DNA of 64,000 bases, taken from positions 1 to 64,000 of the forward strand of contig OZ237754.1 in assembly GCA_965178125.1 (NCBI GenBank). The letters are read 5' to 3'. The translations under genes were made by a program, and so were the position numbers. The notes below the pieces were generated by a model. The model ran no database searches and was not told the origin of the DNA. It saw nothing but the letters and a program-made list of their open reading frames with translations. Position 1 is the first letter of the stretch, and the number at the start of each line of letters is the position of its first letter. Positions 2,037 through 64,000 of the stretch are shown here, in pieces. Origin of the DNA: Bilabrum cf. latius (lineage: Eukaryota).

Positions 2037-5000
2037 TCAAATGCTGCCTTGCTTGCGCGGCGGCTTCACATCGCGTCGCATCGACTGGATTTCCTGGGTT
2101 CTCTCCAGTGTTGAATCTGACCAAAGGAACCAGCAAACCGCAGCTACAAGAAGACTGATCAAACCAAGAGATATCAAGCCGGCACCCCCGAGTCGAGTGC
2201 CATGAATGTAGGAGGGGGCCTGGTAGTCGTCTTGTTCGCAATCATTTGTTCCACCATCCCCACCACAATCTTCAATATATCGAGCTATCTCGCCACCACC
2301 AATACCAAGCATACCAACAACTACGAGAACGACCCCTACAAGAGCTAGCCAAAGTGGACACGAGCTGTCGCCACCACGATCTGTTTCCTCAAGGCTTGAG
2401 TCGTAGACCTGCTTCATATTGTCATTGAATTGATGCGCCTGGTTCAAATGACTACGAGACGGCGTCGCCTGAATCTTGTCTACCTGTGCTGCCAATGCGC
2501 GAGATGCACTGTCAGATGCATCACCCACAATAGCAAATGATTCATGCGCAAGACCAAATGCCGTGACGACAACCCCGGCTGCAAGAGAAGTCGTGCCGGC
2601 TAAATCAGTGCTGACTGCAGCCAAAGAGCTTGTTGCGCCACCCTCACCCTAGCCTTTCCCGAGATCTGGTCCAACCTGTACATGCTATGGGCCGCACATG
2701 GACTACACTTCGATGGAGCCACTGCGACCCCTTCCGTGCTGCTAAGTGACTGCCCGCACGACCTGTGGGATGCTGAGTATCGATGTACGACACATACCTC
2801 CACTCTGCCCGTCGCCTTCTGTGATTTTCAGTTGAGAAACTTGGTGTATAGACCCATCTGGAAGTTGGGTAACCACAATCTCTGCATCACGGTCCCACAG
2901 AAACCCATCAAGCTCGAAAGTGGCTACCAGCTCGCCAGATGAATCAGTAAGCAAAACGCCAGGTGGCTTGTTCAGGACGTCGGGCGATTCAGCAATACTG
3001 GAGGGTACAAGCTGAATTGTACCAAGTGGAACAGCTTCCAAGCCTGGTACGCTGACAGAAACGCTCAAGCTCGCTTGCGCTCGCCAGAGGTCCAATCCAG
3101 ACATGCTAGCCGGCTTGGGAGCCCTGTACTTCAACGTCAGTGCCTGGTGCACGAATCTATTGGTACTTGCGGAACCGCGCGAGTTCAAGGTTTGCGAGGA
3201 CCGGGAATGGAAGGGCTTCAGTATTGCAGAAGCTGTTCCAACTGCCTGGAGAGTTGAGACAGGTTTGATCCTGCAGCCCCCTTGCATCGCAAACACAACG
3301 CAGGATCTGTGAAGATCCGAACTCACCGACTCGAGATGTACAGCCAGGCGGGGGTCCTGCTTGCCAGTGGATCCGAATGACAGATCTACGACGAGTGAAG
3401 CTGCCAGGGCCATCTAGTTGCTTGTCCCGCTAGGGCTCTACCACGCCTCCAGCAAGACGTGATCAAAGGCACCCAAAGAGTCGTAGCCCTGGCCAAGGGT
3501 GGGAGTCGAGTCGTTCAGGTTGACCGGACCGCACAGCTCGAATGTTCCCGGCGAGGCGCACCGATCCATCGGCGTCATGATGCACGGACTCCCTGAGTGG
3601 GAATAATCGCCCGCATCAATTGCAGTCGCAACCCATACATAGTTCGCAGGTTCCATTAGCACGTCTGCACCTCGTTCATTGATGCAAATCTTAAGGGATG
3701 CAAGGCAAGCTTGTTCGATCGGATTGAGCTCAGTGGCAACCAACCAGCCGACTGCATCTCGTGTTCCCCCTGCCACTGCAGTCTGAACCTGCACGCACAC
3801 GCCAGTTGCATGGGACAAGGAAGTGCTCTGAGAAAAATCGTTTAACGCCATGTCCAAAGCTGTGGCACTTGGTACATCCGACAGACCTGTAATCCCTGCA
3901 GCACGAAGTGTGGAATGCAAAGCCCCAAGCCTGCTGCTCTTGGCGCTTAGTATTTGACTCATCGCGATACGTGGCTCTCGCAGAGTAGGAACCCAGCCAA
4001 GCTACTGGACCCTGCTAGCATCAGGATGCGACTCAATTGTCGACAAAATCAGGCAAGGTCCTACCAGCATTTTGGTGCCTTGACCCGGAAGCTATGAGAC
4101 CGATTGCAGTCTGCGTACTTCTTGATTGCCAGATCCAGCAGTGCTGGTCAACAGCTTGCGCGTCGCGAGAAATGCGTCAGCTCTGCTCGCCAGAGTATGA
4201 ACAGCGATGTCCTTGGCATCAAAATCAACTCTTGCGGGGATGAATGCCACTGGGTATGGCGAAGATACTCGATCTCGGACACCGAGCTTCCGGCTCTAGC
4301 CAGCTTGTAGTTCTGCGAAAGTCTTTGCTACGCGAATCTGCACCACTACTGAGCGATTGCTTGGGGTAGGAACCGGGCAACTTCTAGCAAGCTGAACCAT
4401 AGCATTGCCTACTCGTGAAATGGTTTGCCTCGCTGCTGCAACGTCGCTCTAGCCACTTCGCGCCAGGTCCCACGCACGCTACGTTGCAGCAACTGCGCTC
4501 ATAGTGACAAGATCCATACGTGACTACGCACCAAGAGCTGTTCTTCCGGCAACTGACATGGGTAAAAGGAATGTTTCTTCCAGTATCCCACTTCTAGTGC
4601 TTGCATGCTCGTCATCATCGGCGCCACTAGAAGGGTCATTCAGTTTTCTGACGAGAGGCCACAACCAATCAGACATATCAGCAATGGCCACCGTGTGCCT
4701 CGAAGTAGCCTACATTGATGACATCCCTCCACTTCTTGCCGGTGAAGGTAGACGCTACTCGATGCCCAACACAGCCCGCATAGCAGTGTGCCTGGCTGCT
4801 GCGCCCGGCCAGGATGGATCTTCACCGAGAATGCTCGTTGACAGGAGTAGCGGCCCAGTAGAGCAGCCATCAATACTTGCATCTGTCATAGGTTGTTCAG
4901 CAAGACGATATGCGCAGCGTCCCAACGAGAAGACGGCATAGGGCTACGCCTGCGATGAGGACGGATCGTACCGGTGCGCTTCCAAGTGCTGCCCAAATGC

Positions 5001-8000
5001 GTCTTTGCCTCGCTGATGTGCCTCAAGCGCAAAGGCATCAAAGCCACCACCAAGCACCCTGACCTGCGCCCAGAACTAGGTTTCGCTTGGGTGGTTACGA
5101 TTTCCAGCAGCAGTCTCAAGGTCATCTGAACTGAAATCTGGGTCAAAGGATGGTTGCATCTCGTTCGAAATGCTGTCGACAGGAAGGCTCCTTGCGCGGT
5201 CATCCAAGAGGCGACCCACGGCCTTAGGCGAAACGTTTAGATCCTTGTCTGAGAGAATGAGGCTAGCAGCCTTTGCAACTACCTCAAATGCCTTAGAGGG
5301 ATCAAGCAGCACGTCGCCAGCAGGAGCCTAGGTGGGGTGGCCAGGCACATTGTCGTTGCCTCCTGTTCCAGCAATCGCTGCTCCATCTTCGGAGCGGGTG
5401 ACACCCGTGAGCCCAGGCTAGGCACCGCTATTATCAGGCAGAACATCAACACTGAGCAGTAGAGATGGGTGACCAACCTCAGAAACTAGATCCTATCGGC
5501 CGTCTTTGGAATGCACGTCGCAATCCGGCACTAGATTCACCCAAGCTGGTGCCCGAAGCCCAAATCGTCGGGTGGTCAAGCTGTGGCTAGATTGTGTTCT
5601 TTGGTCAGGCACAAGGCGAACGAGAGAAGCAGCAGGCAATCGGCGGAAGAATCGTCGCTCCAGAGATGGCCTCTTCAAGCCTCGCGCCCGAGCCCCAGTG
5701 CTTCGGTTACTTTCATCATCAGCAGAGAACCTGGTATACAAGTACACACAAACATCAGGTAGAGCCTCATGTCCGCCGACAACTGTAACCGGCTCGCTGG
5801 TCGCTTCAATTGGTTCTCGCAGCGCTTGAAACGTTTGAGCCGCACTTGAAAGCTCATCTCCAACACGTTGGTCGTGTGCCTAGGTCGAACTGGAAAAATT
5901 GGGGGGTGGGATTGGCTTGCCAGCATCATGATCTTGCCCAGCAAGCATAGGCTGCGTGAAAGCACCTACACTTGAAGTCAAGCTAGCAAGGATGCCATGC
6001 AAGCCAGGCGGGATCCCGCTGACGGCGTGCAATACAATCCGCACCCTCCATGACTGCACGGCTCCGTATACTACTGGACGGAGCGAAGGAGCACTTGGAA
6101 GCAACGGATCAGACATTGTTTCCCACATAGCATGTAGCACTTGGCTCATCGCCTCGGCTGAAGGGATAACAACCTATCTTGCAAGCTATGCACCGTCAGG
6201 ACCTGCTTCATCCAATTGCTGCTCGGCTCTCTTGGTCTTCACCACCGATAGCAGCGCATCATGCTAGGAGAATACGCCAGGTGGTGCACCAAGGCACGCT
6301 GCAACTTGCTATGAAACGTCTGACTCAGCCGATATTGCTCTGGAGGCCGGCTAGCGAGCAACTCGAGACATGACGGTAGCCATGTCTTCCATCGGGCTTT
6401 GCAGACACGATGCCAAGACTGGCAGAATCTATGGTTTATGCAGTTTGCGACTGAAGACCACATGTTCATAGGCGGTGCCGGCTTGGTTTGTGCGTGTTCT
6501 GCCGCTGCGAGCTGCTTGGATGACACACGCCTGGACAAGAGCTACACCTCGCGTGTGAGACCTGACAGAGTAGTCTGTTACAGTATCGACTCCACCATAC
6601 ATGGCCACCCACGTGGGTTTGCACATAGACACGCTAAGATCATAGTCTTGGCTTTCGAAGGCACGCTACGCGTCACTACCGTTTGACTGAAGTAACGGGC
6701 AGATGTCGAGGTGTCCATCACAGATTGGCACTGCGGAGCCGCCGCTTCCGCCCCCCACCCCGAGCGAAATACGAACGGGCTTCCTTGAAGCCTCAGGGTC
6801 GGACTCGTGTATCAGGACTGGGAGAATACAACTGTTGTCTTTGCGCCAGGAGGCACAGATGGGCTTCTACGCCTGGTTAACTCCTCCCTCGTGGTGTCGT
6901 ACCTAGATTCTTCCTAGGTCCCTCGAATCCGAAGCCATGTGTTGCATCCGTTGCTCCTACATGGGCTAGAATCGAGTTTTCCACGCATCACTGAAGGCCT
7001 TTGCAATCGCTTGGGCTCGCAGGGAGCCGCCATATGAGATCGAAGCCGCAATGTGCAGCGGATTCCTGGACTTGCGCGAATCTAGGACGGCAGGCACAGC
7101 TACATGCTCAATTCGCAGCAACCGGAGTTTCACAAACGCAAGTCTCATTCCATTCGATGGCTATGCCACAGTGTCCTACAAAAATCTCTCCAAGAAGGGC
7201 TCATCTACATTGCTCCAGGGTAGCCGAATGGGCCGAGGAATAGCGGCTGACCACCGGTCTGCGGCCATGCCCTGCAGACTTGCAAGGTCTTCGTGTTTCA
7301 CGGAGGACACAGGGATGACTACTGGCCCTGGGATTCCTGACAGCGGCATACTAGGAGCATCATGCCCATGCGAAGCTTGCCCCCTCATTCCAGATGCAGA
7401 TGTCAAACCAGGCGTCGATGCACCACCCTTGACTGCTCGCACACCATGATCCTGGTGGTCTTGCAAAGGCCGCGGCTTCGGCACAACTGCCACTCGAACC
7501 AACGCCATCCACTTAACTATCGGAGAGAGAGTATCATTCGAGTCACTGCAAGCCACCCATGACATGTGAGCGGGTAGTTCTGGCGAGGACAAATCGATTC
7601 GGGCGAGGGAAGCACTCGTTGATTGAGAGGGCGGGTGCAATGGTATCCAGCACTGAGCCGTACACCCCGTGGCGCCATTGGCTACAATCGGGAGATCGAG
7701 CAAGACTGTCGACTTGTGCTCAACGATACCGTCATCGACGCTGACGCTAACAGTGAGTGCTTTCGACATGCAGTGCGGGCCAAGCTGTGCCACACCTCGG
7801 GTGTCGATAGCTAGCAGTGGCCCTCCAGAGGAAGCAAACGCTGCCAGCTATGAGTTTCTGCTAGCTGTCCTCCTGTATGTCGATGTGACATTGCCAGACT
7901 GGGAACGATGCCCGCCTGCCAGTGCCCAATGATCCCGGGACCCAGCCGTAGATGATATCCAGGCGTGATTGCAGATGACTTGACTGCTACTTGAGCTAGT

Positions 8001-11000
8001 GGGTTCTACGCGGACGAGTTCAACGAGTACGTCGGGAGCAAATACACTGGACCTTGCAGCTCGATCTAAAGATCGCGATACCGCGCAGAGACGCAGAACG
8101 TTATGCGCGTCTTGCACCAGCCTCTACACAGCGAGGACAAGCCTTGAAGCTGAGGGGTCAAACCGCACAACTGTAGCTGGCATTGCATGGCCAGCAACAC
8201 CATCCCGTGAATCCTCATCACGGACTGTTGCAGACATCAATCCCAACAGAGCGAGTGGACGCGCTCGCAAAAGTACTTCGGGGTGCTGCATCAGTTCCGC
8301 GATGGCAAGCCTCACCACTAGCGCTAGTGCATGTGCAGACGAAGCTGCTCCAGCGAAATGGCTGTGCCGGCTTGACTACGACTTGGGGGGCTGCGCCCCA
8401 TCTTCGGAGCTGCGTACCCCTCCAGGGGATGCACTGGTCACCGTGCTCGGGACGCTATCGCTACCAGCTCCAGAATGCGCATGGGCGAGTTGATCGTGGT
8501 CAACTGGTGGATCTGGTTGCGAAATCGAGGCCTCTGCCCTTGTGACTCGATCTACTGGCTGTTCCACCGATCTCCAATCAAGAAGCACATCAATTTCACC
8601 TCTATGCTTCTATCCTGGGGTAATACAGTCCTTCTCAAATAACTATAGGGTTGCACGCTCGGTACCCTGCTGCAGCCCCAAGCCTGACTGTGTGGAAAGC
8701 GAAGCTCGCCGAGCGGTGCTACCTGCCTCCTAACCTACATTGCCATGACCAGGTTCGATGTACGGCAAGTAAATGAATGCACTCCCGAGGAAGTTGTTGG
8801 ACATCATGACGTTCTTGTTCTCCAGCGTCACTCTAGCGATTGGGACGCTGGGTCTAGCAAGATGAGCGAGGGGGTCCTGGTGCTGGCCCTTGCCAACATG
8901 AACCAGGGGGCTCGTCGCTCTCTAGTACTTTCGTGACTGCTACCGTGCTAGCAGTGCCGTCTGCAATACATCCATGGGAATTGGGATGTGAAAGACTTCC
9001 GAGCTGGAATCGAAAGTGATTGCATCCGTTGATCCGTCCACCACTGAGGTGGAAGCAATGGACCCCCAAGCAGACACCCCAACCTTGGTCGGCGAGCTCG
9101 GCGAACTGGTCAAACTACCCATGCTGCCGAAGCTACCATTTCCCCGAATTGAGGCAGGTGTTCCGGCAGCTGTTGTCTGCGATTCAATGGCGCTTGCAAT
9201 TTGCGGCAGCACTGCTTGCACACGAGCCATGACGTGGTTCTTTCCGCCTGACCCCTTAATCTCCAGGTCCTGCGCTCTAAGCAAGGTCAGTCGCACTTCA
9301 TTGACTGTACTCCGCAGAAGCATAGGGCTTGCGTTTACGCCCACTTGCTAGCTGCGTTGCGGAAGCGTCGCTGGACCAGCTGCAGCTGGGTCATGCACCC
9401 AACCGAACACCAGGCCTGTACTTGGAGGTGGCATTCTGCGTGGGGACATAGACAGCGGCCTTGCTGTGGAGGCACCTGCACTTCCTTCCTTGGAATCGGA
9501 CGGACCCATCATTGGGCTACCTGCTAATCCGCTGGGTTCATCGACTTTCCCGGAAGCGGTAACCTCTACCCGATCCAGCACCTCGGCCTTGCCGTCCTTC
9601 CTAACAGCAACCCGGATCAGAGGCGCAGGTGGCGGCAGCATCCTACTGGGAATCACAGTCATCATTGCTGGGGCCTCCTCGCAAAAGTCAAACTGACACT
9701 GTAAGTCGCATTGTCCTCGGACTTTACTGCTTGTTTGTGGCAAACCGTCCCGCTCGTTCAGTGCAACGGTAATTCTACGTCTAGTGACACCAACGAAGTC
9801 ACCGGCACGTACTAAAAATGCACCCAAGAAGCGCTGCCTGTACTTTCCGGCATGCCAAATGGTAAACTTCGCGACCGAGTCAGGGTTCTGCAAGGGCAAG
9901 ACGAAAGTTTCATCGCTGAAGTCAGGTGTCAGTGTCTTGGATCTCGGCTTGGTCGAAACCGGCTGCTACTACATTACAGCTTCCCCCCCATCAATTACGT
10001 TGCACTCGACTTTTGGGGTACTGGTGAGCCCTTTGGCCCCTTTTGCCTCAATCCCATGTACCCCGAGGACGGTTGCAACGAACCGATTCGGAGCTGCTTG
10101 CATGCGAAGCTAGGAAGGTGGAGTAGCCTGCGGCTGAGCAGGGGCATCAGCGAGGCCTGCACTCGCGTTGGGGCGTTGGATCTTGTCAGGAACAGCGGGA
10201 GGTTTTTTTCGCGCCGGCAATGACTTAGACGGAGCAGCGTGATCCTCGCCTGCAGTGCCACTCTCCGCATGCCCAGAGCTCTCGCCAATGGTCTCCATCA
10301 GCGGTGTCTTGATGTCCTCGTCTCGTGGATGAAGGCCATCCTTCATCCTGTTCAGCATACCGGGACTAAACGATGACCGTCCAGCTCTACCGCGACCTCT
10401 ACCTCTACCTCTGCCTGCTCCCATTGGAGACATGCCTCGGCCTGACGATGCCGTGCTTGCACGGCGGCCCTGATTTAGTCGCTTCTTTGCCAGTGGGTTG
10501 CCAGAGGAAGACCCAAATCCATTCAGTAAGCTCTCGGTGGCACCATCGCTCGCAGCATCTTTTGACTCTCCTTTGACCTGCGGCAATCCTAGTGACTCAC
10601 CGCCGCCACCCTTGTGAAATGAAACGCTTGCACCTGCACCAGCTGAACCGGCATGCTTAGCAGCTGCTGCGATCATGCCACGTCTACTATGATCCCCAGT
10701 TGCTTTGTCTGAATGCTCATGGATAGATGCGGCAGGTTTATCACTGCCAACCTCAGCCTCAGCCTCAGCATCTGCCGGCGACACAGCAGCGTCGGCATCT
10801 GTTGGCGATCCAGCAGGCTCAGCGCTGCCAGCCTCAGCCTCAGCCTCAGCCTCAGCATCTGCATCTGCCGGCGACACAGCAGCGTCGGCATCTGTTGGCG
10901 ATCCAGCAGGCTCAGCGCTGCCAGCCTCAGCCTCAGCCTCTGTCGGTGACACGGCAGCGTCGGCATCTGTTGGCGATCCAGCAGGCTCAGCGCTGCCAGC

Positions 11001-12270
11001 CTCAGCCTCAGCGTCAGCCTCAGCATCTGCATCTGCCGGCGACACAGCAGCGTCGGCATCTGTTGGCGATCCAGCAGGCTCAGCGCTGCCAGCCTCAGCC
11101 TCAGCATCTGCTGGCGATCCAGCAGCGTCGGCATCTGCTGGCGATCCAGCAGGCTCAGCGCTGCCAGCCTCAGCCTCAGCCTCAGCCTCAGCATCTGCCG
11201 GCGACACACCGGCGTCGGCATCTGCTGGCGATCCAGCAGCCTCAGCATCTGCCGACCTTCCGCCAGATTCACGGTAATCTGACCCGGAAGTGGCGTTACT
11301 ACCGTCGCCCTGGGAAGGCGCCGGGCGGAGCTTGTGCGGGTCCTCACCGGCCCCACTGCTTGGACCGCCCTCAGTCTCTGGTGGTGGCGAAGGGGGCGGG
11401 CTCACGGCGCGCTCGCCGTCTTGGGTAGCCTCGCCCTCGCGCACTTCTGCGGACAACGGTGGATTCTACCGCGTCTACCCATTGACTGTAACGCTTCTCG
11501 TGCTCTCCAGAGGGCTGCCTAATGCCGCGTTCGATGCAGTGGCTGCATGCCCAGCTGCATCCTCCACACTGGCATCAGTTGCGGCCTTCACCGGCTTCTT
11601 GCGCTTTGGTTTTACCGCTTTTCTGGATTTCTTCTTCTTAAGTTTGGAAGGGGGTGCCGAACTGGGCGGCTTCTTCTTAACCGTGCGCCTTGTGGACTCT
11701 GGAGCCAGGTCCCATCCACCTGGTTCAACTTTAGTCGGCCCATCTAGTACGATTGGAACACGTTCCCAAGCCGCCTATAACATGAGCGCCCCCCGCTATT
11801 TCTCAGCAACTCCTCCACCTTTTTCTGTTAGCTGTATCGTCGCCATTTTCCTGTAGGCTTCTGTTCCATCGGCGACTTGGCTGGCGGCTAGCCTCGCCTC
11901 GCCCAAAAATCTAGTTCGAAATACCTACGGCGATACCAACGTGAGAACAAGTTCATGATCAGGTGTCTCGGCTGGAAACCAGAATTCCTCCCCGATGCTT
12001 ATGGCACTCCCAATCTGCGACTCGTTCGGAAGGGTAGTCGATGCAATTTTGCATTCCGATCTGAGACTGTGCGTGGTCCGCACCAAGAATGGGCATACTC
12101 GTGGGATCGAGCAAATATCTTACAGGAATTACGCTTGACTTCAAGGTCTTCAGCTTTTCACCGCTGCGAAATAACTACACCTTTAGCTGTATATCACCTT
12201 TTCTCTCGAGCCCGTTTGCCGCCACCACATGAAGCCTGAACACGTCTTGTCCGCTCCCTGCGCTCGCCAT
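2037..12270 (-). CDS. Giant (~3370 aa) multi-C2-domain protein with C-terminal transmembrane helices (ferlin/MCTP-like architecture)
   Basis: ATG 12270, GT-AG intron 12123-12015, then one frame to TGA at 2037 with ~50 in-frame TAG and no TAA/TGA (traced by hand). C2-like segments include LHVVAANGL, FLGEARL, FTIWHAGKYRQRFLG and LTLLRAQDLEIK. Two hydrophobic helices lie near the C-terminus. Confidence 0.8.
10745..11250 (-). repeat. Coding tandem repeat (acidic Ala-rich SP(A/T)DAD(AE)nAGSAEPAG units) inside the C2 protein
   Basis: Near-identical nucleotide units with a variable number of GCCTCA hexamers, all in frame. Confidence 0.9.
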
Positions 12271-12503: not shown

Positions 12504-14591
12504 TCAATTTGACGCAATATGCCCACTGATCAACTGGCCTCCATGGGCGGCCACAGCTGCACCACCGTCTTGTTTGAGGAAGCAAATCTTCCGTCCGACG
12601 TCATAGGTGAAATGCGAGCACCTACGGTCTCTTTCGCAGTGCTTGCAGCATTCATCAACTGTTGCTGTCTGGACATCTCTGATATCGGTATTGCAGCTCG
12701 GACAGCCTCGCCAGTCCATCGCGATCTGCAGACCGCAAGATTTCCGACGCTTGGACCCTGCTGCATCTGCTAGACCCTCCAACTCTCGATTCTCTCCCAC
12801 AAGCCAAGGAAGCTGCGACAGGACGGTGTCTGTCTCGCGGCACGTCTGGGACGACCAGAACGGCTGCGTGCAAGTGAACCCACTCGCAACCGCGACTGCA
12901 CCACTACCCGCGCGTGCACCGTCTCCTGCCACGTACCCAAACCTCCTAAGGCCATCCTTCGCGGCCTGATCCAGAGCTTCAAACTCTGAGGCTCGCTGGG
13001 TCGCGGGACCGTCCTGCCCAGAGGCCACCCCGTACTCGACTCGCCACTTCCCAAAGCGGCTCTGCACCCCTCTGGCGAACCGAGCCGAGGCTTCCTGGAT
13101 TGATGCCGGGGAGAACTTGTCCCCGGGCCCGGCTCCTGCAGCTTCTTCAAGTTGTGCAGGATTGCTCCCCCCGGTGAACCCCTGCGAGTGGGAGCCCTGG
13201 GACTGCCAGTAGTGCGGGGACAGCATGCAGCACAGCTACTCATCCGACCTTGGGCTCCCCACCAGATCGGCCAGGCGCTTCAGAGCCGCCCATCGAGCGC
13301 TCACCGAACCCAGCAGCAAGTCCTCCACGCGAACCACTGCATACTCCGACAAGCGCCTAGGGTGGCCTTGCACATTCAGGCCGGAGCCGACAGCCACGCT
13401 AGGCGCGCTGAAGGCAGACACGATGACCTGGGGCTCTTTGCTTCCGGCGCTCTGGCTCCGGCGCTGCATAGCCCAATCAAGCGTGGCAGTGTTCCAGCGA
13501 GACCAAAGCAAGGCGGCCTTGGCTCGTTGACCTGCCCGGGCAGCCTCAGCGGTTTCCAGCGAGTTGTCTGACCCGAACAGAGGGCCCCAGAACTTCTGCA
13601 CCGGGCTCGTGTTGCCGCTCATTGCTATGTCCCTTCCGTCTCGGACCACGTGAATAAGGCGGACCGGTGCATGCCATCGAGCAAGCATGGGGAATATGGA
13701 CAGGCTAGCTGGGGCCTTGAACCCCCACGGCGCACCTACGGCTAAACCACGCGTCTCGCTGGTCTAGCGAGAGCCAGACTGCGCAGCTGCTTGGAGCAAC
13801 TCCTGGCCCTTGCCTCTAGCCTTGCGCATGAGTCGGTCAACCATGGCGCGGGAGGACTCACGCACGCCGGGTGCTAGCTTATCAGGGTCGTACTGCAGCG
13901 TTCCTGCCGCCCGTAGGAGCGGATCTACCAGTGCGGGCCACCCGCCCGTGCCAATCTCGTCGGGAGCATCTCCATGCAAATCAAGTGTAGTGATGTCAGA
14001 ATGGACTAACGGGCACCCGAGCAACTAAAGCAGATTTGCAACCATTCGAGTGCCGCTTCCATCGCTTCCGCCAACAACGTACGGCATTGCTTCGGCTAGC
14101 GCAGGGCGTTCTACCCTTGAGGGACCCTACTAAGCCAAATACGCATCTTTATTGCCAGCCTTATGCTCCTGCCTTTTTCCTTGTGATCTGTCACTTGTTC
14201 CTACGGCCGTGTCGACTTTGGGCGCCGATATCGAATTGTCATTGCCAGTGGCAGGCGCATCAACACGATCTTGCGACCCACTTCGATCTGGTCTATCCAA
14301 GTTAATCTCCATCTTGGGTTTGCTCAGGCCTCCTTGCATCACACGGGGCTGAACAGGGTTGCCAGTAGTGCGAATCGGAGTAGGCGCTGGGATCCACGCT
14401 TTGGCGAGCTACTGGCGCGCGACTCCAGCCCGCGGCCGCCCAACAAGATGATTAGTAGAAGATTCGTGAGAAGGCAGCAACCCGGCCACAAGCAGAGCCA
14501 GGACAACCCCTGTCAATATTGCAGCAACAGCTGCAAGCGTTGCCCTCGAGTTGCAATTGAACTGGCGAGCTGAATGTCGGCTATGCTACAT
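12504..14591 (-). CDS. Type II membrane sulfotransferase with C-terminal PAN/Apple domain (~695 aa)
   Basis: Four same-frame ORFs join through TAG. N-terminal TM (LAAVAAILTGVVLALLVAGLL), PAPS loop VVGGSDGSGTR, WGFKAP, IHVVRDGRDIAMS, Apple-type ECCKHCERDRRCSHFTY...CFLK. Ends TGA. Confidence 0.85.
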
Positions 14592-14755
14592 GTTTCCATT
14601 AGCAGCTGTGCTTCCTTTCCTTGACATCTGATATATGCGAGATGTGGCTTAAGATTATGTCGTACTTGACAGGTCCACCACACCACAAATGTGCAGTGCA
14701 ATAAATCACCATCACAACTTGAACGACCCACTGGCAACTAAAACTTCTAAGCTTG

Positions 14756-16732
14756 TTAAGCTTTCGGCTATAATTTTGGGGCCCTGGTGCATGCCTACAC
14801 AGAATTTCCCGCAAGGGATTGCTGCGTGTGCTCGCCGAGCATGCCTGAGGCGAGCAGTGGCCAGGAGCCCCAGCCGCTCGGGGGTAGCCCAACGCCAAGT
14901 CTAGCGCGGCCCATCCGCGCCCCATCGGCAGTATGGTTCACAGCAGTTTCCGGAAGCTATGTACCTCGGTCGAATCCGTTGAGTACATCTACTGCGTGCC
15001 TCTCCTCGAACCCCTGGTCCATAGCACCTTGCCTGCCCTTGCCGAGCAACCCAGCCTGCTTCTGCAGGCCGGTTTCAGCAGCGTGCGCCGCTTCCACGAC
15101 CTTGGGGTCCGCAGGATCCTCGCCAGACAGCCCATGCCCCGCGATAGAAAACCCCTGGAAAGCTGCGTGCCACCATGCATAGCACCTCTCCAGCGCGGCG
15201 CACATGGGCTTGGATGCCGTGGATATGCGCTGGGGCCCTGCTGGCCCGCACTCTTCCCTCATTTCAGTGGCGATCTGCGAGTGGGTGAGGCTGTCTGCGA
15301 TCGATGCACTGACACTCAGTGTCTCGTCCAGGCTCTCTGTCTGATGCCACCAGTCCATCGGGTAGTACAGCGCATCCCCGGGGCCAACTGTGTCCAGGTA
15401 GCACCGCGCCTACCGGAAGCGAGGGGCTCGCGAGTAGTCTGGCTTAAAAGCGTCTACTCTTCCGGCGTCATACATGAAGGACCGCTGGGCAGGCGCGCAT
15501 ATGTGCCACCGCTTGTGCCCCATCACCTGCACCTGCCACGAGGAGGTCCTGATCACATCCCAGTGGTTGAACATGCCCGCCCCGCGGCTGCCGATGAGAG
15601 CCATCTTCCAGTGGGTGCTGCGCAGAAACTCGTTCCTCAGCTGGTCATCGGGGAAACAGGCCCGCAGCCAGGACTGGTCCGCCTCAAACCTCGCCGGCAG
15701 CACCCCGAGCAAAGCGCGCACACTCTGCCACTGCTCCCAGGCCAGGTTCAGCTACAGATACACGGACCCGGGGCGGCGAGGCGAGCGCCTCAGCATAGTC
15801 TTCTCCGGTGGTCGCCTGAACTCATCTGCCGCTTGCCAGAGAGGCACCATCCAGGGTGACACGGCCGTGGCCTCCATGTTGTGCGGGTAGGCGTCTACCG
15901 GCATGTCGGGGAAGCGCTCCAGAAACCACGCCAGGCTGAGGTTGCGCCACCCGCCTGCCTCCGTAGACCCCACAGATGCGTGTTCATGCGGCCCGCGCCA
16001 CCCCATAGAGAGTTCGTCCTCATCGGATATGCCTTCGATCCCAGGTCCGCCCCAGCTACGTAGCTGTGACAAGCCCGTCAGACGGAATGGGATTGTGCCG
16101 CCGCGGAAGGGGGCAGCTTTCGATCCTCCCAGAATAAATTCCTTAACATGAATAATCGGAAGCGGAAGCACCACATGTTCGAATTTTTCGGGGTTGTTAA
16201 GGTCAGGATCGTCGAAATAGTTCAGATCCTCAGCTTTAGACTAGTTGACAGTGCTTGCCATCGCCTAGACCAGCTCTTCGTCTTTTTGTGGCCTACGGAG
16301 CCTCACTGCTGGAGGAAATGGTTTGCTTGGAACCGATTGATTACTGGTCCCGCGAGCTTGCTGCCGAGATCGGCCCGCGGCGTGCCTTCGCTGGTCGTTT
16401 CGAGCAGCTCTGGTCTCCATGTATTTCTCAAGGTCATCCTTGTTTCTACGAGCATCTTCGTTTGCAGGATCCTTCACAAGGGCCAACTCAAATCGAGCCA
16501 TTGCTTCTTCTAGCTTGCCTTGACGCATCAGCACGACGCCATAATTATTGTTGAGTAGCGCGTTGCTCGGATACAGTTCGAGGCCCTCAAGGAAGACTGC
16601 GGCCGCTTGTGACATCTACCCCGATTTTGCAAAGCTCAGTCCTTTATCATTCATATCCTTCGGCGGAGCTACGATTGCAGTGCCGAGGCACGAGGCGTGG
16701 GCTAGTAACAGTGCCACGTAAAACAGCCGCAT
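14756..16732 (-). CDS. Signal peptide + TPR + JmjC 2-oxoglutarate/Fe(II) oxygenase (JMJD8-like, ~658 aa)
   Basis: MRLFYVALLLAHASCLG signal, TPR (NNYGVVLMRQGKLEEAMARFELALVKDP), JmjC FNHWD...QVMGHKRW...GDALYYPMDWWHQT. Joined through TAG, ends TAA. Confidence 0.85.
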
Positions 16733-16903
16733 TGCTGCCTGCCAATGGTGAAGTGTTCAGTCAGAATGCCCTTTAGACCAGAGAGAAACAATGCAAAAGT
16801 CTCGACGATAAAACAACAAATATACCGCAGTTCTGGCGAAATATGCCACGACAATGACCAGATGTTCGCGTGACTGGGTGCGCTCGTCACATGAGGCGAT
16901 GAG

Positions 16904-43582: not shown

Positions 43583-43689
43583 GCCGCAAATTTCTTTTCC
43601 CTATTTCGGGGCCTACAGGTTCGTGAACGTTCGACACGGTTTGCTTCTTCGGTCGGGGCTTCGTGCAGACCACCCTTCCACTTGAGCGC

Positions 43690-46539: not shown

Positions 46540-46660
46540 GTCTGACGTGGGGGGCCTAGAATTGGTATCTGCTTGGTCTGGGGTTCGAGGGCATAGATGT
46601 ACAGCACTCTACTATTTTTTAGTCCTCATTTGCACGCAATAGTTCCGTTCGCCGTGTACG

Positions 46661-48192: not shown

Positions 48193-48340
48193 TTGATTCA
48201 CTGGCACAATCGACAAATGCGCCGGCTTGTGATGCAAAATTTAGCTTGACTATGCCGATTTTGCGAACGAAGAAGATAAAAAGCACACTTCGTTCGTACA
48301 TTCACCCTGACGGTATTATAATTACCAGGCATATACTTTG

Positions 48341-51300: not shown

Positions 51301-51772
51301 GACTCTCCTGTCGCATGGAATGGACTGGGTGCGGCCGCCCGTGGGTGCAGGCAGCTATGCCAAGGGTCACCCCGGCCTGCAGTCAGCCGGCCTGCCGGAG
51401 GGCTGGGTGCAGACTGGATGGGGCACCGGCCAGGATGCCACCGGACAGCTGCTGATGGCCACAGAGAATGGGCAAGCAACGCGACTGGAGCGCACGAGCA
51501 TCGGGGCAGCTGTAGCTCTGGCGGCAGGAGGTGCTAGTCCTGAGCTGTAGCGTGCCGCCCTTGCGTGGGTGCTGCCTGCGGATGCCTCCTCCAAGGCAGC
51601 AGAAGCAGTGGTGGCCAGGTCCGACGAGCGTTGCTTTTCCCCGCAAGAGAGATGTAGGGTACTGCTGGCGGCCGGCGAGCCGCCTTCCCTTGCTGATCTC
51701 ATGCTGCTGAGTGGACCCTCCCAGGTGGACATCCACGGCCCGTCGCCCATCGCCATGGACAAGAACGGATGA
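48341..51772 (+). CDS. LENG8: SAC3/GANP-family protein THP3/LENG8 (~1140 aa)
   Basis: [73 protein letters not shown]. Gln-rich N-terminus, ends TGA. Confidence 0.88.
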
Positions 51773-52024: not shown

Positions 52025-53243
52025 TCACAGTTCATCTCCGTGCGAATGCCCCGGGCGGCGCACCTGCCCCTCTCCCTGCTGGAGCAAATGCTCCACGTCG
52101 TCTGCCTGGCCCGGCACCTTGCGTTGGGATTCGTCCTTGTGGTGCTCGTGCTCGTGCGGCCCATCCTCGTGCTCAAAGGTTGCGGGGCTGTCGTGGCCCT
52201 GGGCCCACACGGATCTAGGAGGCTTCCCCGGGAGCTGGATTTGCTTGAGCGAGCACAATGCCCTGACCGCCCGCTGGCACTTGTTGTGCTGCGAGTAGGC
52301 CCGCCAGTCCATACTCGCCACGTCACACTTCCCGAAGGCCTTGCAGAGCGAGTGCTCGCCTCCGTTATGGCAAGTACCCTCCACAAATCGTTCCACCTCC
52401 CTGAAGCACCGGGGGGAGTTGTGCCCGTGGAAGTCGCACTCGTGGCACATGGCCAGCTCCTCGGTGGGCAGGCGGACCGGTTCAGGGGGTGGCGCGTGTG
52501 CCTCCCGCATGCTCGCCTCATGAGCCTCGGCGGACAGCTGAATGTGCTCGCACGATGCGTGCACAGCGACGAGACACCCCGGCGCGAGCTGGTCGTCTCC
52601 CTTGAGCCCGTACTCGCACTCGTCCAGGTGCATGGGCTCGTCCGTGCTGCCTGCGTTGTGCATGGCCGGCAAGTAGCAGTCGGGGTGCGCCTCCGCCTCG
52701 GGATTGGGATCAAACCGTCTGCAAGCCTGCGCGAGACAACTAGCAACGCGGTGATAGCATCGGAAGAGAGATGTGGGTTGTATTCAGAATACACACTGGC
52801 ACGTCGGTTGCGAGCCCTGCTCTCACCACTTTGGCCCAGTTCTCCCTGGCAACGCGACAATTATGGGGAGTGTGGTGATTTTCGATTCCATCGTCTGCAT
52901 ACTGATGGCCCGACCAATAGCAAATTACGCAATGCTTCGCGTAGGGACTGTGGACAGGGTGGCTGACGGGGTCTGTTGATGTCAACCCTGTGATATCAAG
53001 CTTATCGTCACCGTCGATCGCGTACGTTCGTCCAGTAATAGAGTCATGATGAACAGGGAACTTGATGACCAAGTCATCGGGAGGAAGGTCCGCACCGCCG
53101 TGCTGCTCGTGGAGTCCAGCGTTGTGATGAGCCTGATGGAGGTCCATGTGGGCGTTTGCCTTCGTGTGAAGCTCAGTGGCTTGCGCGTACCATCCTTCAA
53201 CTATACTTAATCCGATACACACAACAAACGTGCTTTGCTGCAT
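52025..53243 (-). CDS. His/Cys-rich secretory protein ending in GDEL (putative ER-luminal)
   Basis: Signal-like N-terminus MQQSTFVVCIGLSIVEGWYAQA. Intron 52826-52727 (GTGAGA...CGCAG) joins two ORFs in phase. Ends HSHGDEL-TGA. Confidence 0.72.
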
Positions 53244-53578
53244 CTTTTCTGCAGCAGTAAGTGCGCGATTGCACTTCGAGTCCACACGTGGATTTAAGTG
53301 TCACGCAACATTAATGACTCGGCGCCGCGCAAAATCGGTATTTTTCACTGCGGAACATACCGGCTCATTGACGAACGGACAAGCTGCAATAGCCGTCCTA
53401 GGGGACTTGATTGCGAGATCAACTCGTTCTTTGGGGAAGAGTTGTACGAATCTACAATTGACGACCGATTTGTAGTCTAGCATTACCCGTTCACCGTACG
53501 ATTCGTTCCCTTCAGTGGCCGTTGCGTGCAACATCAAGGAGAGCAATCTGCTTTTCTTTTCTCCTTGCCTCCCTGTGG

Positions 53579-54589
53579 ATGGCTGGTAGGGGTAGTAGCA
53601 AGTTTGCCTCAGGATCACCTTTTGGCAAGTAGCAACCGCAACCGTTTGCCTCCCCCGCGTACCAACCCGGAGACCTCCAGCAGGGCCACGACCACGGGTC
53701 GCGCAGCAACGCCGGAAAGTTGGGTGGCCCGTGGAATCCCGGTCAATCAAAAGCTGGAATTGGAGAAGGTTTCGCAGGACTGCACGGTTTGGCCGCATAG
53801 GAGCAGCATTCTGACCGAAGTGGGCGCGGAGTGGCATACGACGCATCCGATCCTCGGCACGTTGCTGATAGCAAGAGCGGGCTAGGCCGAAGCGGGGCGA
53901 TGCAAAATGGAGGCTAGGGGGCTGGATTGGGTGCGCACGGTGCGTAGGCTTGGGGAGGTGGCGACGGCTTTCACGCGAGTGGCAGCCGTGGTGGAGCCAG
54001 CGGGCTGGACGGTGGCCAGGCCTGGCATCAGGGGCAGGGGCAGTAGGGGGGCATGCACGGGGGTGGGGATGCAGGGGATGATAGGTTTCGCGCAACAGAT
54101 TCCCACGGGGGTGGAAGCGGTGCTAGCCGGAAGCGACGAGGCAGCAGAGCTGGCGAGGGTGGGACCGGGGAGGGGGGTGGTAGGCGGGGGAGTGGGGCAG
54201 TGCCGGTGCAGGGGGGTGCTTGGGAGGAGTAGAGAGGCGGGGGTCATGCGGGTGCGGGTGCAGGTGAAGAACACTGGTAGGGCGGCGGGGGTGGTGCAGG
54301 CGCTAGGTACGGGGACGGTAGTGGCGGGGGGCCCGGCGCGGGGGTAGGCAGCAGCGCGGCGGTGGCTCCTGCGGGGGGGGGTGCCGTCGGCGCCGGTGGG
54401 CCGATGGATGCGGCCATGGGGGCTGGGCCGCAGAACGGGGAGGTCCCGTACGATAATCGTGTGACTTGGTCTGACCAGCACGGCTATGCCCTGGTTGAGG
54501 TGAACTACAGCGAGAAGCTGCACTACTCGGCGGACTCGATCGACGAGTCGCAGATGCAGAGGAGCTCCCAGTGCTGCGTCATCTCCTGA
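53579..54589 (+). CDS. Gly-rich protein (~336 aa) with RVTW motif and C-terminal CaaX (CCVIS)
   Basis: One frame from ATG 53579 to TGA 54589 through ~7 TAG. C-terminus NRVTWSDQHGYALVEVNYSEKLHYS...QCCVIS. Confidence 0.7.
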
Positions 54590-58680: not shown

Positions 58681-60024
58681 TTAGAGCCCTGAATCCCGTT
58701 CACCCCCACCACTGCTCACTGGGCTCCGGTGAAGCTCCCTGCGTTGGGATTCCCAAGTCTTCAGAAGTTCTGGGATGGAGCCAGCTCCCACCATAGCCCG
58801 AAGAATCCCACTCCTCGTAACCCTTGCCGCTTCCATCAATGAGTAACGATCATACACCGCTGGCATGTTGGGCAGAGACCACCCAGCCTGGCCGTGCACG
58901 TACTTCTCGTCCTTGGTTGGGTCCGTCTGGCGCAATGCTGACACTCCCGCACTCTTGAAGGCGTACACACCCTCCCCCTTGCGGTGCACAGGAATCCCTT
59001 GCGCTGTTATCCACTGCAGCGTGGCACTGTGCGCAGCCCGTGTTCGAGAGGCGAATACTTCCCCGCGCTGCCCTTGTGTTGGCTACCGAACTGATACCCA
59101 CCACTTCAGCCACCGATACGGGCACAACTCCTCGAATCCATCCGGCAAGCATGGAATGACCGCTGGCGGGCGCTGCTCGGGGTTGCCGCCGAGCACCCGC
59201 GACTTGTACCGCTGCCACCCAATCAGTGCCACGGGAACAACCTCGTTGTCATCAGACGCTGCAGTCCACTCTATCTCCCCTATTGCCAGATGCACCAGAT
59301 CTGGCCACCGGGCCAAGCCACAGAATGTCCCCACATAGCAGCACATAAATGTATCGAGAACCGCTGGTGTTGAGTTGTAGTCCGCACGGGCCAGCGCAGC
59401 TGGGCCTTGCCACATCGAATCCCACTCTGCCTGCAGCTACCAGGCCATCATCACTAGTGCTCGCAACGTTACAGGGTTGTCCACCAGGACACGTAGGGCA
59501 CGTACCGCGTCCGGATCCGTCGCCCCGGCACATCTACGCTTGTAGCCGAGCAGGGCCAGTTTGACCTGCCTGTACTCCACGTCTGCGAGTGGGGTACGCG
59601 GGAACTCCGCTGACCTGAACCACGCCGTTTGCGCTTGGAACAATCGCAACACTGTGGCATACTTCAACCCGGCGGCGCACTACTCCGTCAGCAAAGCCCA
59701 CATGGCCTCCACCGGATCCCCGACCTCAAGTTCCGCCTGCATGGTCAGATTCCGCCTGCGCGCGTCCAGAGCTCCCTTGCCGAGCTGCTGACTCTCCTAC
59801 AGCATCAGGGTCCTAGTCGCCGCCACCGCTGCTCGCCGTTGTGCCGCAGCACTTGAGCCTGCTCGTCCAGTCACTGGGATCAGCTCCCCAAATGGTCCTG
59901 CGAAGATGAAATGGTGCATGAAAAGTTGAGTCAGATGTCGCCCTTGCCGCCGAGACAAACCCCGTTTTGCCCACGCGCTGCCCCGCCGTCTACACCAGTT
60001 GACCAGCACCGTCCTCCACCCTGC
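58681..60024 (-). CDS. Tyrosine recombinase of the retroelement
   Basis: Frame open 60024-58681 through 4 TAG, ending TAA. Motifs FCGLARWPDL, RYKSR, LCPYRWL, GVYAFKSAG, QAGWS, MPAVY. Start uncertain. Confidence 0.8.
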
Positions 60025-62383
60025 TCAATCTATCGCATGCCACCATGATCGGTGTACTTCGCCTCTACCACACGGGGAAGATCACGTATCCCAAGTTCTC
60101 AGCCAGCCTTCCAATCTCTCGCAGCTCATCTCGCTACCCAGCCTTCATCGAGCCGCCCTTCCGCAGCAAATTTGGCAGGGCTTGATTGTCTGACAGCACG
60201 AAGAGCGCCTCTGGGCAAGTCTGGCTCCTCGCCAACTAGCCTGGTCCTGACAAAAAAGCTCGTAGTGATGCTAGTTCGCGTGCCGTACTGGATAGTAACT
60301 GCATGTCCTCGTGGAAACCCATTTGCATCAAGCCAGAATCACCATTGCCTCGGCGCCACATTGCACCCAGTCCATGGGCTGACGCGTCAGCACAAAACAC
60401 GGATGCTCTCCCCTCCGGCAACGGGTATATCGGTGCAGCTGCTGCCGCTGTCAAGATACCGCGGTCCCTACATGTCAGCCACCACTCAAATTCCTCGTTG
60501 AACTCTGCCGTCCAGATGTGCCTACCACCTTTGCGAGCCTTTGCAGCCGCCTAGTATATCGCAAACACGTGCTGCGAAGCGTGGGGGATTACTGCCGCAG
60601 CCGCGCCCAACTGTCCTGCCAGTTTCTCCACAGCCTTGACCGCCAGCGCACTCGTTGCTAGCATGTTGAAAGCTCGCATTCGCTCAACGGTCCTCAGCAC
60701 TGCGTGGATCCGTGGCCATCGATCCGAGCGCAGTGTCACCTTCAAGTGGGCTCCCAGGGTAATCTTTAGCCCAAGGAACTCAATCACCTATGTTGGAAAG
60801 GTAAGTTTGCTAGGCTATATCCTCATGCCAATCCCCCGCGCTACAAGCACGGCACACCACAACAACTACATAGTGCGGGCCTCCGTACGTGCTGACAGAA
60901 AGCCATCATCAATGTACCCAAAAGCCCAATGTGCGGTGCGCAGTCGCACCCCCGCTAAACACTCTGCCAACACTACTGATGCGACAAAACAGCCCATTCT
61001 GCAACCAAACGACAAGACCACAAACTAAAACATGCTGCCACCCACTCCGCGAACTGCCATCCATCGCTGCAGCCCCGGTGCCAGCGCTATACTATGATAT
61101 GCCGCCTTGAAATCGAAGGCTGCCCCCCATTCGTGCCTGTCACGTCCCACGCGCTCTGCTAAATGCCGAGCAAAATCACCATACCGGAAACGCAAGTCAA
61201 GAAATGCCTCGTTCGCGCCCGAGCGCTTCATATCCGTGACTAGGCGCTGCTTGCCAGTCGTGTCCTCCCGCTGCACCAAGCGTGGTGTCTGACCCTCCCG
61301 CTGCTGTACCTCGATTGCGGTCCTCTTGGCAACGAACATAGGCGTCACCTAGACCGCGGCGCCCTCCACCGGTCGAATCTTGCCTGCACTCGCTGCTGCT
61401 TCCACGAACGGGACTACATCCTCCTCGTCCGCCGGCAAGTCCTTCGGGTCAGCCCGTACCGGCTGCGCCCCCAACACCTTCAAGACTGCCTCCGCCCGAA
61501 GCCCATGTCGTGCCAGTCCAACAAACCCCCGGCCCGCTACACAATCGGGCTCCACTGCGCCCCGCGCCCCGCAGCGTCGACAACGAGCCAAATGTGCCTG
61601 CCATGCTCCACGAGGTGACAGCGTACACGGCTAGCGTGCTGCCCATCGCTCCCCCTGCTGCAGTTCGCCCCTACGCTCCCAGTGTGACAACGTTCCATAC
61701 CAGACGTCCAAAGCAGATGATGGTGCCTAGCCCGGTGGGAATGACCGCAAGTCAATCTTGTCCCGCTTTGCCAGGCATCGTGCCCAAGCCTACCACATCC
61801 CGTCCGCACCCAATGCTGACGGCGCATCCCCAGTCATCCCCGCTCCCGCATCACCGTCATTGTCCACAGAATAGCCGGCTGCTTCCATCTGCACCTCGTG
61901 CCATCGTCTCGAGGGGCCTGCAGATGCAACCTAGTCCAACAATTCGTCCGCGTGTTCCATGATGTCCGTCACAATGCACCGCCCATCCAGTGTCCGCAGG
62001 CTCGGCTCACCACGCTGTAGGGTCGGAGTCTTCTGCTGAGCCAGGATTTTTTGCGCTGCTTCCGAAGATAGTGCACATGCCTACACTACTGCAGCCCTTC
62101 CCCTGGCTCGGGCCGCGTCACCCATTCCCCGCTAGTCGGCCACTTCGTCTTGGGGAGGTACGGTGCTCCGCCTACGTTTTGGGCCCCGATGTCGTCCCTT
62201 TTTGGCGCTCTGACTCCTGCTGCGACTCTTGTCCACCCGCACTCGCGCTACTGCTGCTGCTGCTGCTGCTGCTGGCCTTCGCTGACTACCGTTTTGCCGC
62301 TGCCCCCGCTCCTCCAGCTGCGGCCCCATGCTCCTTTGCCACCCGCTTCGCTCGCTCCAATGCTGACTTGTCTATCGCGGCTG
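59726..62383 (-). CDS. Reverse transcriptase - RNase H (pol)
   Basis: KQRLVTDMK, FDFKAAYHSIAL, F*FVVLSFG, GYIDDG, PT*VIEFLG. RNase H FCADAS, ARELASL, LSDNQA, ACDRLSR. Open between TGAs at 62384 and 59726, first ATG 62329. Confidence 0.92.
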
Positions 62384-64000
62384 TCACATCCTCCCACGCC
62401 ATAGCGCTATGGTTGCCTGCCGGATTCAGTCCCAGTAATTCCCACGTGGGCCCCACCTGAGTCTGCGTCATCCGCAGCGGGGTCTCGTTCTCGCTCCGCA
62501 ACTACCACAGTCGAAGCACCGCAGGAGTATCCATTCTCCCCACTGGTGCCACCCTATGTATCAAAATCATGCGCAGAGCAGTTGCTAACACGAAATGCTG
62601 ACCCGTATTGGCTGTGTCCCCGTTGCCTCCACCTGCCGTGCGGACTGCTGCCGCATGAAGGACCATCCCCAAGCCCAAGAACATTCTTCGCACTGCAATC
62701 TCCAACGCCTCGTGAAGCTTGCTCATTACTGCCCTGGCTTCCGCATGCTTATCCTGGTGCAGCAGTGTCGCAAGTGTGATAACCACCTTCAGCAACGACG
62801 TGCTCCCTGCCACGACCCACTCGAGCGCCCCACACACCGATCTGGTCAATATCGTGGGTAATCGAAAAATGTTGCCTTGTTCCAGTTCTGCCACTCCCGA
62901 CAACACGTGCTACCCGCACTTACTCGCAAATTGCCTGATCCCGTCCGGCATGAGCAAATCACCCGCCTCCTCCAGCACCGGTGCCACATGAAAGCTGCGG
63001 CCAGATCCTGACTCCCGGCGAAAACCAGCCGCACTCGCCATAGAAGCGAACATTATCTGCGCGGGGCGTTCAATCCGAAGCAACGAAATCTTTGCCTTGT
63101 CCGCACTCGTCAGCGCCACTGAGGCCAAGTCCTTAGCTCTCTCGCCTTCCTCCCCGAGTTCGGCCAAATACCGTGCACTGTCCCTAAATTGAAGCACCTC
63201 CTAAGACCGTACGGTGTCGTAGAACAAAGAGTCAACTCCCTTCGCCGTGGGAATGGAATTATGCACTTCCTTGGCGCCGTCTCCATCGTCTGCTCCGACC
63301 TGGCCCTGGTATGGTGACTTCTTGCAGGCGCCGGCTGACGACTTAATCGCCTGGGTGGAGTGCTCGGGCCGGGCATTTAACTCAAGCGCAAGGGCACGGA
63401 GCAACTACAACGTACCATTGGGCTCACCCGATGCCATGGCCGCAACCGCCTGTTGAATTCGCTTGTCGATCGCGTCACTCGCGGTCGCCTCTCCTGCTCC
63501 CGCGGATGCTCCCTCGACCTCTTGCTCGCGCCTTGCCGCCTTGGTGCGACGTTCCGAATCCGCCACAATGGCCTCCCAGGGAGCTTGTGCTTCCCCCACC
63601 TCTTCCGCTCTCCCCCTTTTTCCCAGCGTTGCGCCCGAGATGGTGCCCATCGACGCCTGCGCCCCAAACACCGCGCTGGCACCGCGGCTTGCCGTTGGAC
63701 CTCCCGCTGGTTTGCCACCCGCCCCAGCATCGGCCGCAGTCACTCCACCATGGCTGAATCCGCCCCCAAAATCAAAGAGGCCCAGCTCGCTCGGCGGATG
63801 GCCTGAGGTAGCAGTCGCCCCTGCACCGGCCCCCCCGCTTGGGGCAGGCAGTTTCCACCCAAACCCGCCACCGTCCATGATGCCCCGGCCCAGTGAGTGC
63901 GCTCCCATCGGCCCCCCGGCTACACGTTCAGGCCTTGACCCCGTGAATGGTGCTGTTGTTGATGCCCCGGATGGTACCGGGATCACCGGTGCTCCCCAGA
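62118..64000 (-). CDS. ORF1 / gag-like protein (5' partial)
   Basis: Five same-frame ORFs join through TAG, open from the window edge to TGA 62118. Position is upstream of and overlapping pol. Confidence 0.7.

Follow-up and report, generated by a model that had tools for sequence, protein, structure and literature searches.

A gene-dense chromosome end

The DNA analysed here (the window) comprises 64,000 nucleotides, positions 1 to 64,000 of the forward strand of contig OZ237754.1 in the assembly GCA_965178125.1 of Bilabrum cf. latius, and our subject is the genetic code in which its genes are written. The window is eukaryotic nuclear DNA with a G+C content of 52-66%. It begins with 101.7 copies of ACCCTA (positions 1-609, 98% matches), the complement of TTAGGG. 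This telomere of TTAGGG type marks the end of a chromosome and shows the assembly to be chromosome-scale. Genes are densely packed on both strands and have few introns, the LSM6 and alpha-tubulin genes being split. Among the Pfam families encoded (Table 1) are PP2C, a combination of TPR with JmjC/Cupin_8, PAN, Not3/5, a GPI-PLD-like protein (Zn_dep_PLPC with FG-GAP), DAO, an ASC channel, alpha-tubulin, a BadF/NAGK-type kinase, SAC3/GANP and a reverse transcriptase (RT). An Rfam scan of the window returned zero matches and no rRNA, and eRF1 is not among the genes encoded in these 64 kb.

Conserved genes of the window, including those for LSM6, Not3, PP2C and a member of the SAC3 family, carry the triplet TAG in frame. 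The reading that we favour, with a probability of roughly 0.85, is that the window is a chromosome end of a protist whose cytoplasmic translation takes UAG as glutamine (Gln) and UAA and UGA as stops (NCBI table 15), with UGA as the usual stop.

UAG is a sense codon

We compared open reading frames (ORFs) of at least 500 amino acids, taken from stop to stop, under the standard code and with TAG, TAA or TGA as sense. The standard code gave three such ORFs, the longest of 799 amino acids, and making TAA a sense codon left both figures as they were. With TGA as sense there were 13, the longest of 842 amino acids, and with TAG as sense 20, the longest reaching 3360. Fifteen ORFs, amounting to 16,271 codons, contain 166 in-frame TAG and neither TAA nor TGA. 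Since these 15 ORFs are stretches defined as free of TAA and TGA, the two zeros arise by construction, and the real test is the length of the ORFs. In the other two frames of the same stretches TAG occurs 165 and 147 times, TAA 38 and 73 times, and TGA 230 and 402 times. TGA and TAA together make up 1.6-2.9% of the off-frame triplets, so that chance cannot produce gaps of 3000 codons. The TAG codons are dispersed along the full length of the long ORFs and, alongside 435 CAG and 179 CAA, represent about 21% of TAG, CAG and CAA taken together.

The two longest ORFs had already been singled out in an earlier, sequence-only reading of this DNA, which counted by hand about 50 TAG in one and 25 in the other; the counts are exact (50 and 25). 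The names that it attached to them found no support. The 3360-codon ORF called 'C2' (2040-12119; the giant ORF below) has a single Pfam match, which lies below threshold at 20 bits against a cut-off of 22, and the ORF called 'KNTC1' (20548-29559) matches neither a Pfam family nor, at E<=0.1, a PDB sequence. A search with the giant ORF at near-full length returned zero homologues.

The same pattern was found in other genomes. Protein fragments of a close relative are 85-92% identical to proteins of the window. Three of them, P0152, P0155 and P0156, stop directly before TAG-529 of the LENG8-like ORF and before TAG-1424 and TAG-1648 of the giant ORF, respectively, while P0151 and P0155 read through TAG-604 (LENG8-like) and TAG-1248 (giant ORF) with Gln. 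RT fragments 95-100% identical to that of the window likewise end, in protein libraries, exactly at the TAG positions of the window. The standard or the bacterial code was used for gene prediction in these libraries, and the genes of the organism are therefore kept as short pieces that start and end at TAG. As gene callers cut genes at every TAG, the proteome in databases is mis-annotated and has to be predicted again with table 15.

A more distant genome was reached by a metagenome scan in which the query was a 63%-identical fragment (P0153). The contig found, L001, is a 5.9-kb metagenome contig (JGI) with 55% G+C and about 47% protein identity to the window; L002 is an identical piece of the same sequence. 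L001 is syntenic with the window, since a LENG8-like gene is followed on the opposite strand (L001 3788-4957, -) by the gene of a protein ending in GDEL. Its LENG8-like ORF has 1170 codons and 22 TAG, whereas the longest ORF under the standard code has 237 codons. The use of TAG as sense is thus a trait common to no fewer than three genomes, whose degrees of relatedness differ widely: that of the window, that of the close relative and L001. A further locus, L003 (19.4 kb of a 50.7-kb metagenome contig), contains a LENG8-like gene 37-43% identical in its conserved part. The ORFs of L003 are long under the standard code (1860 amino acids), which makes it a candidate standard-code outgroup.

UAG is a sense codon, as claimed by the sequence-only reading and as the ORF structure shows in the window and in two related genomes; between related genomes it exchanges with CAG and CAA.

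UAA and UGA as stops

Thirteen of the 15 ORFs end with TGA and two with TAA. Six C-termini were checked against a homologue or against the end typical of the family, and all were followed by TGA or TAA, none by TAG. The ends checked include those of Not3, compared with CNOT3, of tubulin, with its acidic tail, and of LSM6, whose exon 3 finishes with TGA. The final residues of the LENG8-like protein are equal to those encoded in L001, the stop being TGA in the window and TAA in L001, and the gene of the GDEL protein stops with TGA in both. When TAA was made a sense codon, none of the ten longest ORFs was extended. The giant ORF alone holds 51 CAA and 50 TAG and no TAA. TAA and TGA are thus kept as stops, with no in-frame TAA against 179 CAA, although few gene ends were sampled, and the equivalence to NCBI table 15 that had been proposed for this DNA holds.

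UAG very probably encodes glutamine

The amino acid was sought in three sets of data: an RT-family profile, orthologous sites and Pfam score scans. The five TAG codons that the sequence-only reading had matched to family motifs are all present, at 42027-42029 (LSM6), 49895-49897 (+, LENG8-like, column 529), 47861-47863 (-, NAGK-like), 61025-61027 (-, column RT-453) and 60788-60790 (-, column RT-532). The same is true of the two Gln-rich tracts in which it saw TAG alternate with CAG and CAA, one at 48420-48530 and the other around the motif QGQGQ-x-GG near 54040.

For the retroelement we used the best 150 of 374 RT homologues from a search of the full protein library, 147 of which aligned; the query was masked when the profile was built and aligned. 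Ten of the 18 TAGs of the RT ORF fall into match columns of this profile, where the log-odds sum to +10.8 bits for Gln, +2.9 for His, +1.2 for Asn, +0.8 for Lys, +0.5 for Glu and +0.3 for Arg, all the remaining residues being negative. The two best TAG columns are Gln columns in the family profile. RT-532 is the strongest of all (+3.55 bits), and at RT-453 Gln is the top residue (+2.24 bits).

The orthologue set consisted of a global alignment of the LENG8-like genes (495 identities in 1258 columns), the GDEL protein gene and the fragments of the giant ORF. In these alignments a residue stands opposite 37 TAG codons from one or the other genome; it is Gln in 8 cases, Ala in 6, Gly in 5, Asn and Lys in 3 each, and any other residue in one or two. 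Six further TAGs lie opposite gaps, and Gln is ahead by 11.5 bits in the BLOSUM62 sum over the 37. At the 13 well-aligned sites, defined by at least 6 identical residues among the 12 flanking ones, the count is Gln 6, Gly 2, Asn 2, and Lys, Ala and Glu 1 each. The probability of finding Gln at 6 or more of 13 sites is 4e-6 to 6e-5 when its frequency is taken as 3.8-6%. The BLOSUM62 sums for the orthologue sites amount to 14.0 bits for Gln, 6.5 for Glu, 5.0 for Asn, 3.5 for Lys and 1.5 for Arg. Where at least 9 of the 12 neighbours are identical, the partner is Gln in three cases out of three, encoded by CAA or CAG.

Individual sites illustrate this. Column 529 of the LENG8-like protein is Gln in four of four orthologues, namely L001 (CAA), L003, L004 and P0154, the last from the haptophyte Diacronema lutheri, which supplies the sole named LENG8-like orthologue (33-36% identical). 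At 50120-50122 (+) of the same gene, where the window has TAG, L001 has CAG and P0151, a fragment 91% identical, has Gln. Gln is likewise found in P0155 (87% identical) opposite the TAG at 8376-8378 (-), which is residue 1248 of the giant ORF. In the opposite direction, two TAG codons of the L001 gene for the GDEL protein face Gln (YWSGH-Q-Y) and Asn in the window.

In the Pfam score scan, about 15 TAG sites in seven families were translated as ten residues in turn, Not3 being left out. Gln gave the highest total (405.2 bits), followed by Arg (404.3), Lys (401.9), Glu (399.7), His (399.1), Tyr (396.3), Ser (395.6), Ala (394.4), Leu (389.4) and Trp (378.4). Leu and Trp are rejected by these scans, and so are Ala, Ser and Tyr, though with less force. 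When the RT profile, the 13 orthologue sites and the seven Pfam scans were combined over the ten residues, Gln scored +24.8 bits, Glu +1.5, Lys +1.0 and Arg +0.9. Gln is thus about 23 bits ahead of the next candidate, in line with the sequence-only reading, which held it to be the most likely residue, and on these alignments UAG very probably encodes Gln.

Alternative readings

Several observations weigh against UAG being glutamine and nothing else in this genome, and they are given here together with the alternatives on which they bear. One concerns the decoding apparatus: ARAGORN detected no tRNA genes in the window or in loci L001-L005. Decoding would depend on a dedicated tRNA-Gln with anticodon CUA, together with an eRF1 whose recognition of UAG would be weakened. 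For Iotanema it has been argued that no anticodon other than CUA reads UAG without also reading UAA (PMC5304391, accessible part).

UAG could have a dual role, encoding Gln within genes and also terminating some of them near their 3' ends. Dual stop/sense codons are known from Condylostoma, from karyorelicts and, in the case of UAA, from Blastocrithidia. In the window, three TAGs lie within the last 67 codons of the JmjC ORF (residues 600, 654 and 663 of 666), and the PP2C ORF has TAGs at residues 948 and 975 of 984. The ends of these ORFs are predicted from DNA, and the frame left after a true stop at such a TAG would be short enough to have arisen by chance. A few genes may therefore end in TAG, in which case termination at this codon would be occasional. 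The six checked C-termini, which all use TGA or TAA, and the spread of TAG over entire long ORFs argue against such a role, which we regard as unlikely.

UAG might instead be a sense codon for another polar residue, Arg, Lys, Glu or His. The Pfam scans alone leave Gln, Arg, Lys, Glu and His unseparated, with Arg only 0.9 bits and Lys 3.3 bits behind Gln. In the RT fragments closest to the window, 28 residues are aligned with TAG, and Arg (7) and Cys (6) come close behind Gln (8). The RT homologues had moreover been chosen by a query carrying Gln at its TAGs, so that a slight enrichment in Gln is possible. At single sites, TAG-103 of Not3 (30497-30499, +) faces Glu in CNOT3 chains, the TAG at 8124-8126 (-), residue 1332 of the giant ORF, faces Lys in P0155, and the second LSM6 TAG (41997-41999) faces Lys or Thr in solved LSm6 chains. 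The TAGs of the DAO ORF face Ser or Ala, Lys and Met in PDB matches, in columns that are variable.

The family motifs, taken by the sequence-only reading as Gln columns throughout, give a similarly divided picture. LENG8-like column 529 and RT-532 proved to be Gln columns. RT-453 is Cys in three and Val in one of the four closest fragments, though the family prefers Gln there. The LSM6 motif LE-x-AEEY, compared with LEQTEEY, has Gln at its TAG in the solved chain 3jcr_6 but Arg in 4emk_B, 6ppn_F and 3swn_B, and the kinase motif SGCG-x-E, compared with SGGDQE, has Gln in NAGK 2ch5_A but Asn in 1zc6_A.

Exchanges of Gln for Arg, Lys or Glu are, however, ordinary substitutions. Both the orthologue sites and the RT profile place Gln well ahead of Glu, Lys and Arg, as does the combined score, and in the high-context DNA comparisons with a single recurring partner residue the partner codon is always CAG or CAA. 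We therefore consider a polar residue other than Gln to be very unlikely.

It is scarcely conceivable that the TAGs are not translated as such, being due to pseudogenes, to assembly or sequencing errors, to UAG-to-CAG RNA editing or to low-level readthrough. Decay or errors would yield all three stops, whereas the ORFs hold 166 in-frame TAG and no TAA or TGA. The pattern is also repeated in independently assembled relatives (Logan fragments and the JGI contig) and affects housekeeping genes (LSM6, Not3, LENG8-like), and editing would need to change about 1% of all codons.

Finally, a reassignment of both UAA and UAG (table 6), with TAA simply rare in a G+C-rich genome, agrees with the small share of TAA among the ORF ends, but we give it hardly any credence, as no TAA stands in frame beside 179 CAA and 166 TAG, TAA as sense lengthens none of the longest ORFs, and the LENG8-like gene of L001 stops with TAA at its conserved C-terminus.

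Other features of the window

Table 1. Coding features of the window, with strand and stop-codon content.
Feature	Position	Strand	Remarks
Giant ORF, 3360 codons	2040-12119	-	50 in-frame TAG, 0 TAA/TGA; ends TGA
PAN-domain ORF	12507-14648	-	7 TAG
TPR+JmjC ORF	14759-16756	-	8 TAG
PP2C ORF	16907-19858	-	11 TAG
Giant ORF, 3004 codons	20548-29559	+	25 in-frame TAG; ends TAA
Not3/5 ORF	30191-32062	+	TAG at 30497-30499
GPI-PLD-like ORF	32464-35457	+	4 TAG
DAO oxidoreductase ORF	35531-37531	+	5 TAG
ASC channel ORF	37670-39586	-	6 TAG
Alpha-tubulin gene	39931-41614	+	exon 1 from ~39931, intron, exon 2 40307-41611; stop TGA
LSM6 exon 2	41961-42062	-	two TAG: 42027-42029, 41997-41999
N-acetylglucosamine-kinase-like (NAGK-like) gene	46664-48301	-	TAG at 47861-47863
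SAC3/GANP-family LENG8-like ORF	48311-51769	+	16 TAG; ends TGA
Cys/His-rich ...GDEL gene	52028-53300	-	split over two frames, intron or frameshift between
Gly-rich ORF	53462-54586	+	7 TAG; QGQGQ-x-GG near 54040
Retroelement ORF with RVT_1	59729-62383	-	18 TAG, 0 TAA/TGA
Upstream retroelement ORF	62121-63998	-	6 TAG; 263-nt overlap with 59729-62383, in a different frame

Both ORFs of the retroelement use TAG as sense, which indicates that the element is adapted to the code of its host. The way in which they overlap suggests an arrangement as in gag-pol frameshifting. Cluster look-ups covering 30 proteins returned no close relative with a name; the sole names, all among distant matches of the RT, were ORF3 of a plant badnavirus, a pseudoscorpion protein and a lizard Ty3 polyprotein. 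A scan of viral contigs with the RT found no relative.

Exon 2 of the alpha-tubulin gene contains 12 CAG but neither TAG nor CAA in its 435 codons. Alpha-tubulins usually start with MRECISIH and have a C-terminal Tyr; the N-terminus of this one is unusual and its tail ends in ...EEEEM. In the Atlas its matches were all generic tubulin clusters. The Cys/His-rich protein is conserved in the window and in L001, and its C-terminal GDEL or HGEL resembles a signal for retention in the ER; neither Pfam nor the Atlas returned a match for it. Near the N-terminus of the giant ORF, at 10751-11254, lie in-frame tandem repeats with periods of 75, 93 and 168, which encode an acidic repeat rich in Ala, Glu, Asp, Ser and Pro.

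Next to the telomere, a subtelomeric satellite occupies 1294-1965 (12 copies of a 56-bp unit, 96% matches); a Pfam match to zf-RAG1 in a spurious ORF of this satellite was dismissed as due to chance. GC skew follows the orientation of the genes: regions of minus-strand genes (1-20 kb and 56-64 kb) show negative values, down to -0.22, and the region of plus-strand genes (20-36 kb) shows positive ones, up to +0.12. The coding strand is thus G-rich relative to C. Of the words sampled from 40000-49900, 60-98% are present in eight public runs from four studies with four organism labels. The source organism may be a co-cultured or contaminating protist in these runs, or the labels may be those of related strains.

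Comparison with known codes

Nuclear stop-codon reassignments are rare. As far as the accessible parts of two sources go, UAG and UAA have different meanings in a handful of lineages only (PMC11687900; PMC5304391). Reassignment of UAG alone to Gln has been reported for Iotanema spirale, Protocruzia tuzeti, Hartmannula sinica and Trochilia petrani (PMC11687900, accessible part). In the full-text literature searched, most subscription journals and supplements lying outside it, no account of a UAG reassignment turned up for any stramenopile or unplaced flagellate. Since UAG-only-to-Gln has already been described, in Iotanema and in three ciliate lineages, we are probably dealing with a new lineage that uses a known code variant. 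It is well supported that this is not a new kind of code but a non-standard nuclear code of known type in a small clade.

A wider proposal, for and against which we see about equal odds, is that this lineage is one for which no nuclear code change has been reported and that the code is a clade-level trait of three or more divergent genomes (one known from a metagenome only), in which UAG was captured in full by Gln, making up about a fifth of the Gln codons, UAA is a stop and UGA is the main terminator. If so, the clade would add one more case, independent and outside the ciliates, of a rare change, the uncoupling of UAG from UAA, and, should the organism be the Cafeteria-like stramenopile that the sequence-only reading supposed, the first nuclear code change in stramenopiles. 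Its DNA would also appear to be present in several public data sets. An additional lineage would be a natural experiment on how eRF1 loses UAG yet keeps UAA, and on the origin of tRNA-Gln(CUA); for this one a chromosome-scale assembly is available, as are relatives at two distances (85-92% and about 47% protein identity).

Table 6, in which both UAA and UAG encode Gln, is the commonest variant and is used by many ciliates, hexamitin diplomonads, Ulvophyceae, Streblomastix and Amoeboaphelidium. These systems share UAG as Gln with the window but differ from it in that TAA is a stop in the window. Ciliate telomeres are of TTGGGG or TTTTGGGG type. The ciliates Hartmannula sinica, Trochilia petrani and Protocruzia tuzeti use the same table as the window (NCBI table 15, misnamed 'Blepharisma'). 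The window differs from them in its G+C content of 52-66%, in being a long, multi-gene chromosome end, in its TTAGGG-type repeat and in its retroelement. In these ciliates, 58-70% of the internal UAG codons stand at conserved Gln positions (PMC11687900, accessible part).

Other systems share single properties with the window. UAG alone has been reassigned to Leu or Ser in a rhizarian, in some ciliates and in Scotinosphaera (PMC11687900; PMC5304391, accessible parts). The rhizarian exLh and Scotinosphaera have UAG and UAA decoupled as in the window, but with UAG as Leu or Ser (same sources and parts), residues that in our scores lie 36 bits (Ser) and 43 bits or more (Leu) below Gln. The crAss-like phages with code 15 likewise read TAG as Gln, with proteomic support (PMC9523058, accessible part); theirs is a phage-encoded suppressor system in bacteria, whereas the code of the window is nuclear.

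Iotanema spirale (Fornicata) shares with the window UAG as Gln and UAA and UGA as stops (PMC5304391, accessible part, here and below). A tRNA-Gln(CUA) was predicted in Iotanema, and a change T32G in the GTS motif of its eRF1 was proposed. Iotanema is an anaerobic metamonad. Its main stop is UAA, while TGA ends 13 of the 15 ORFs of the window, and UAG accounts for about 8% of its Gln codons, compared with about 21% of TAG, CAG and CAA in the window.

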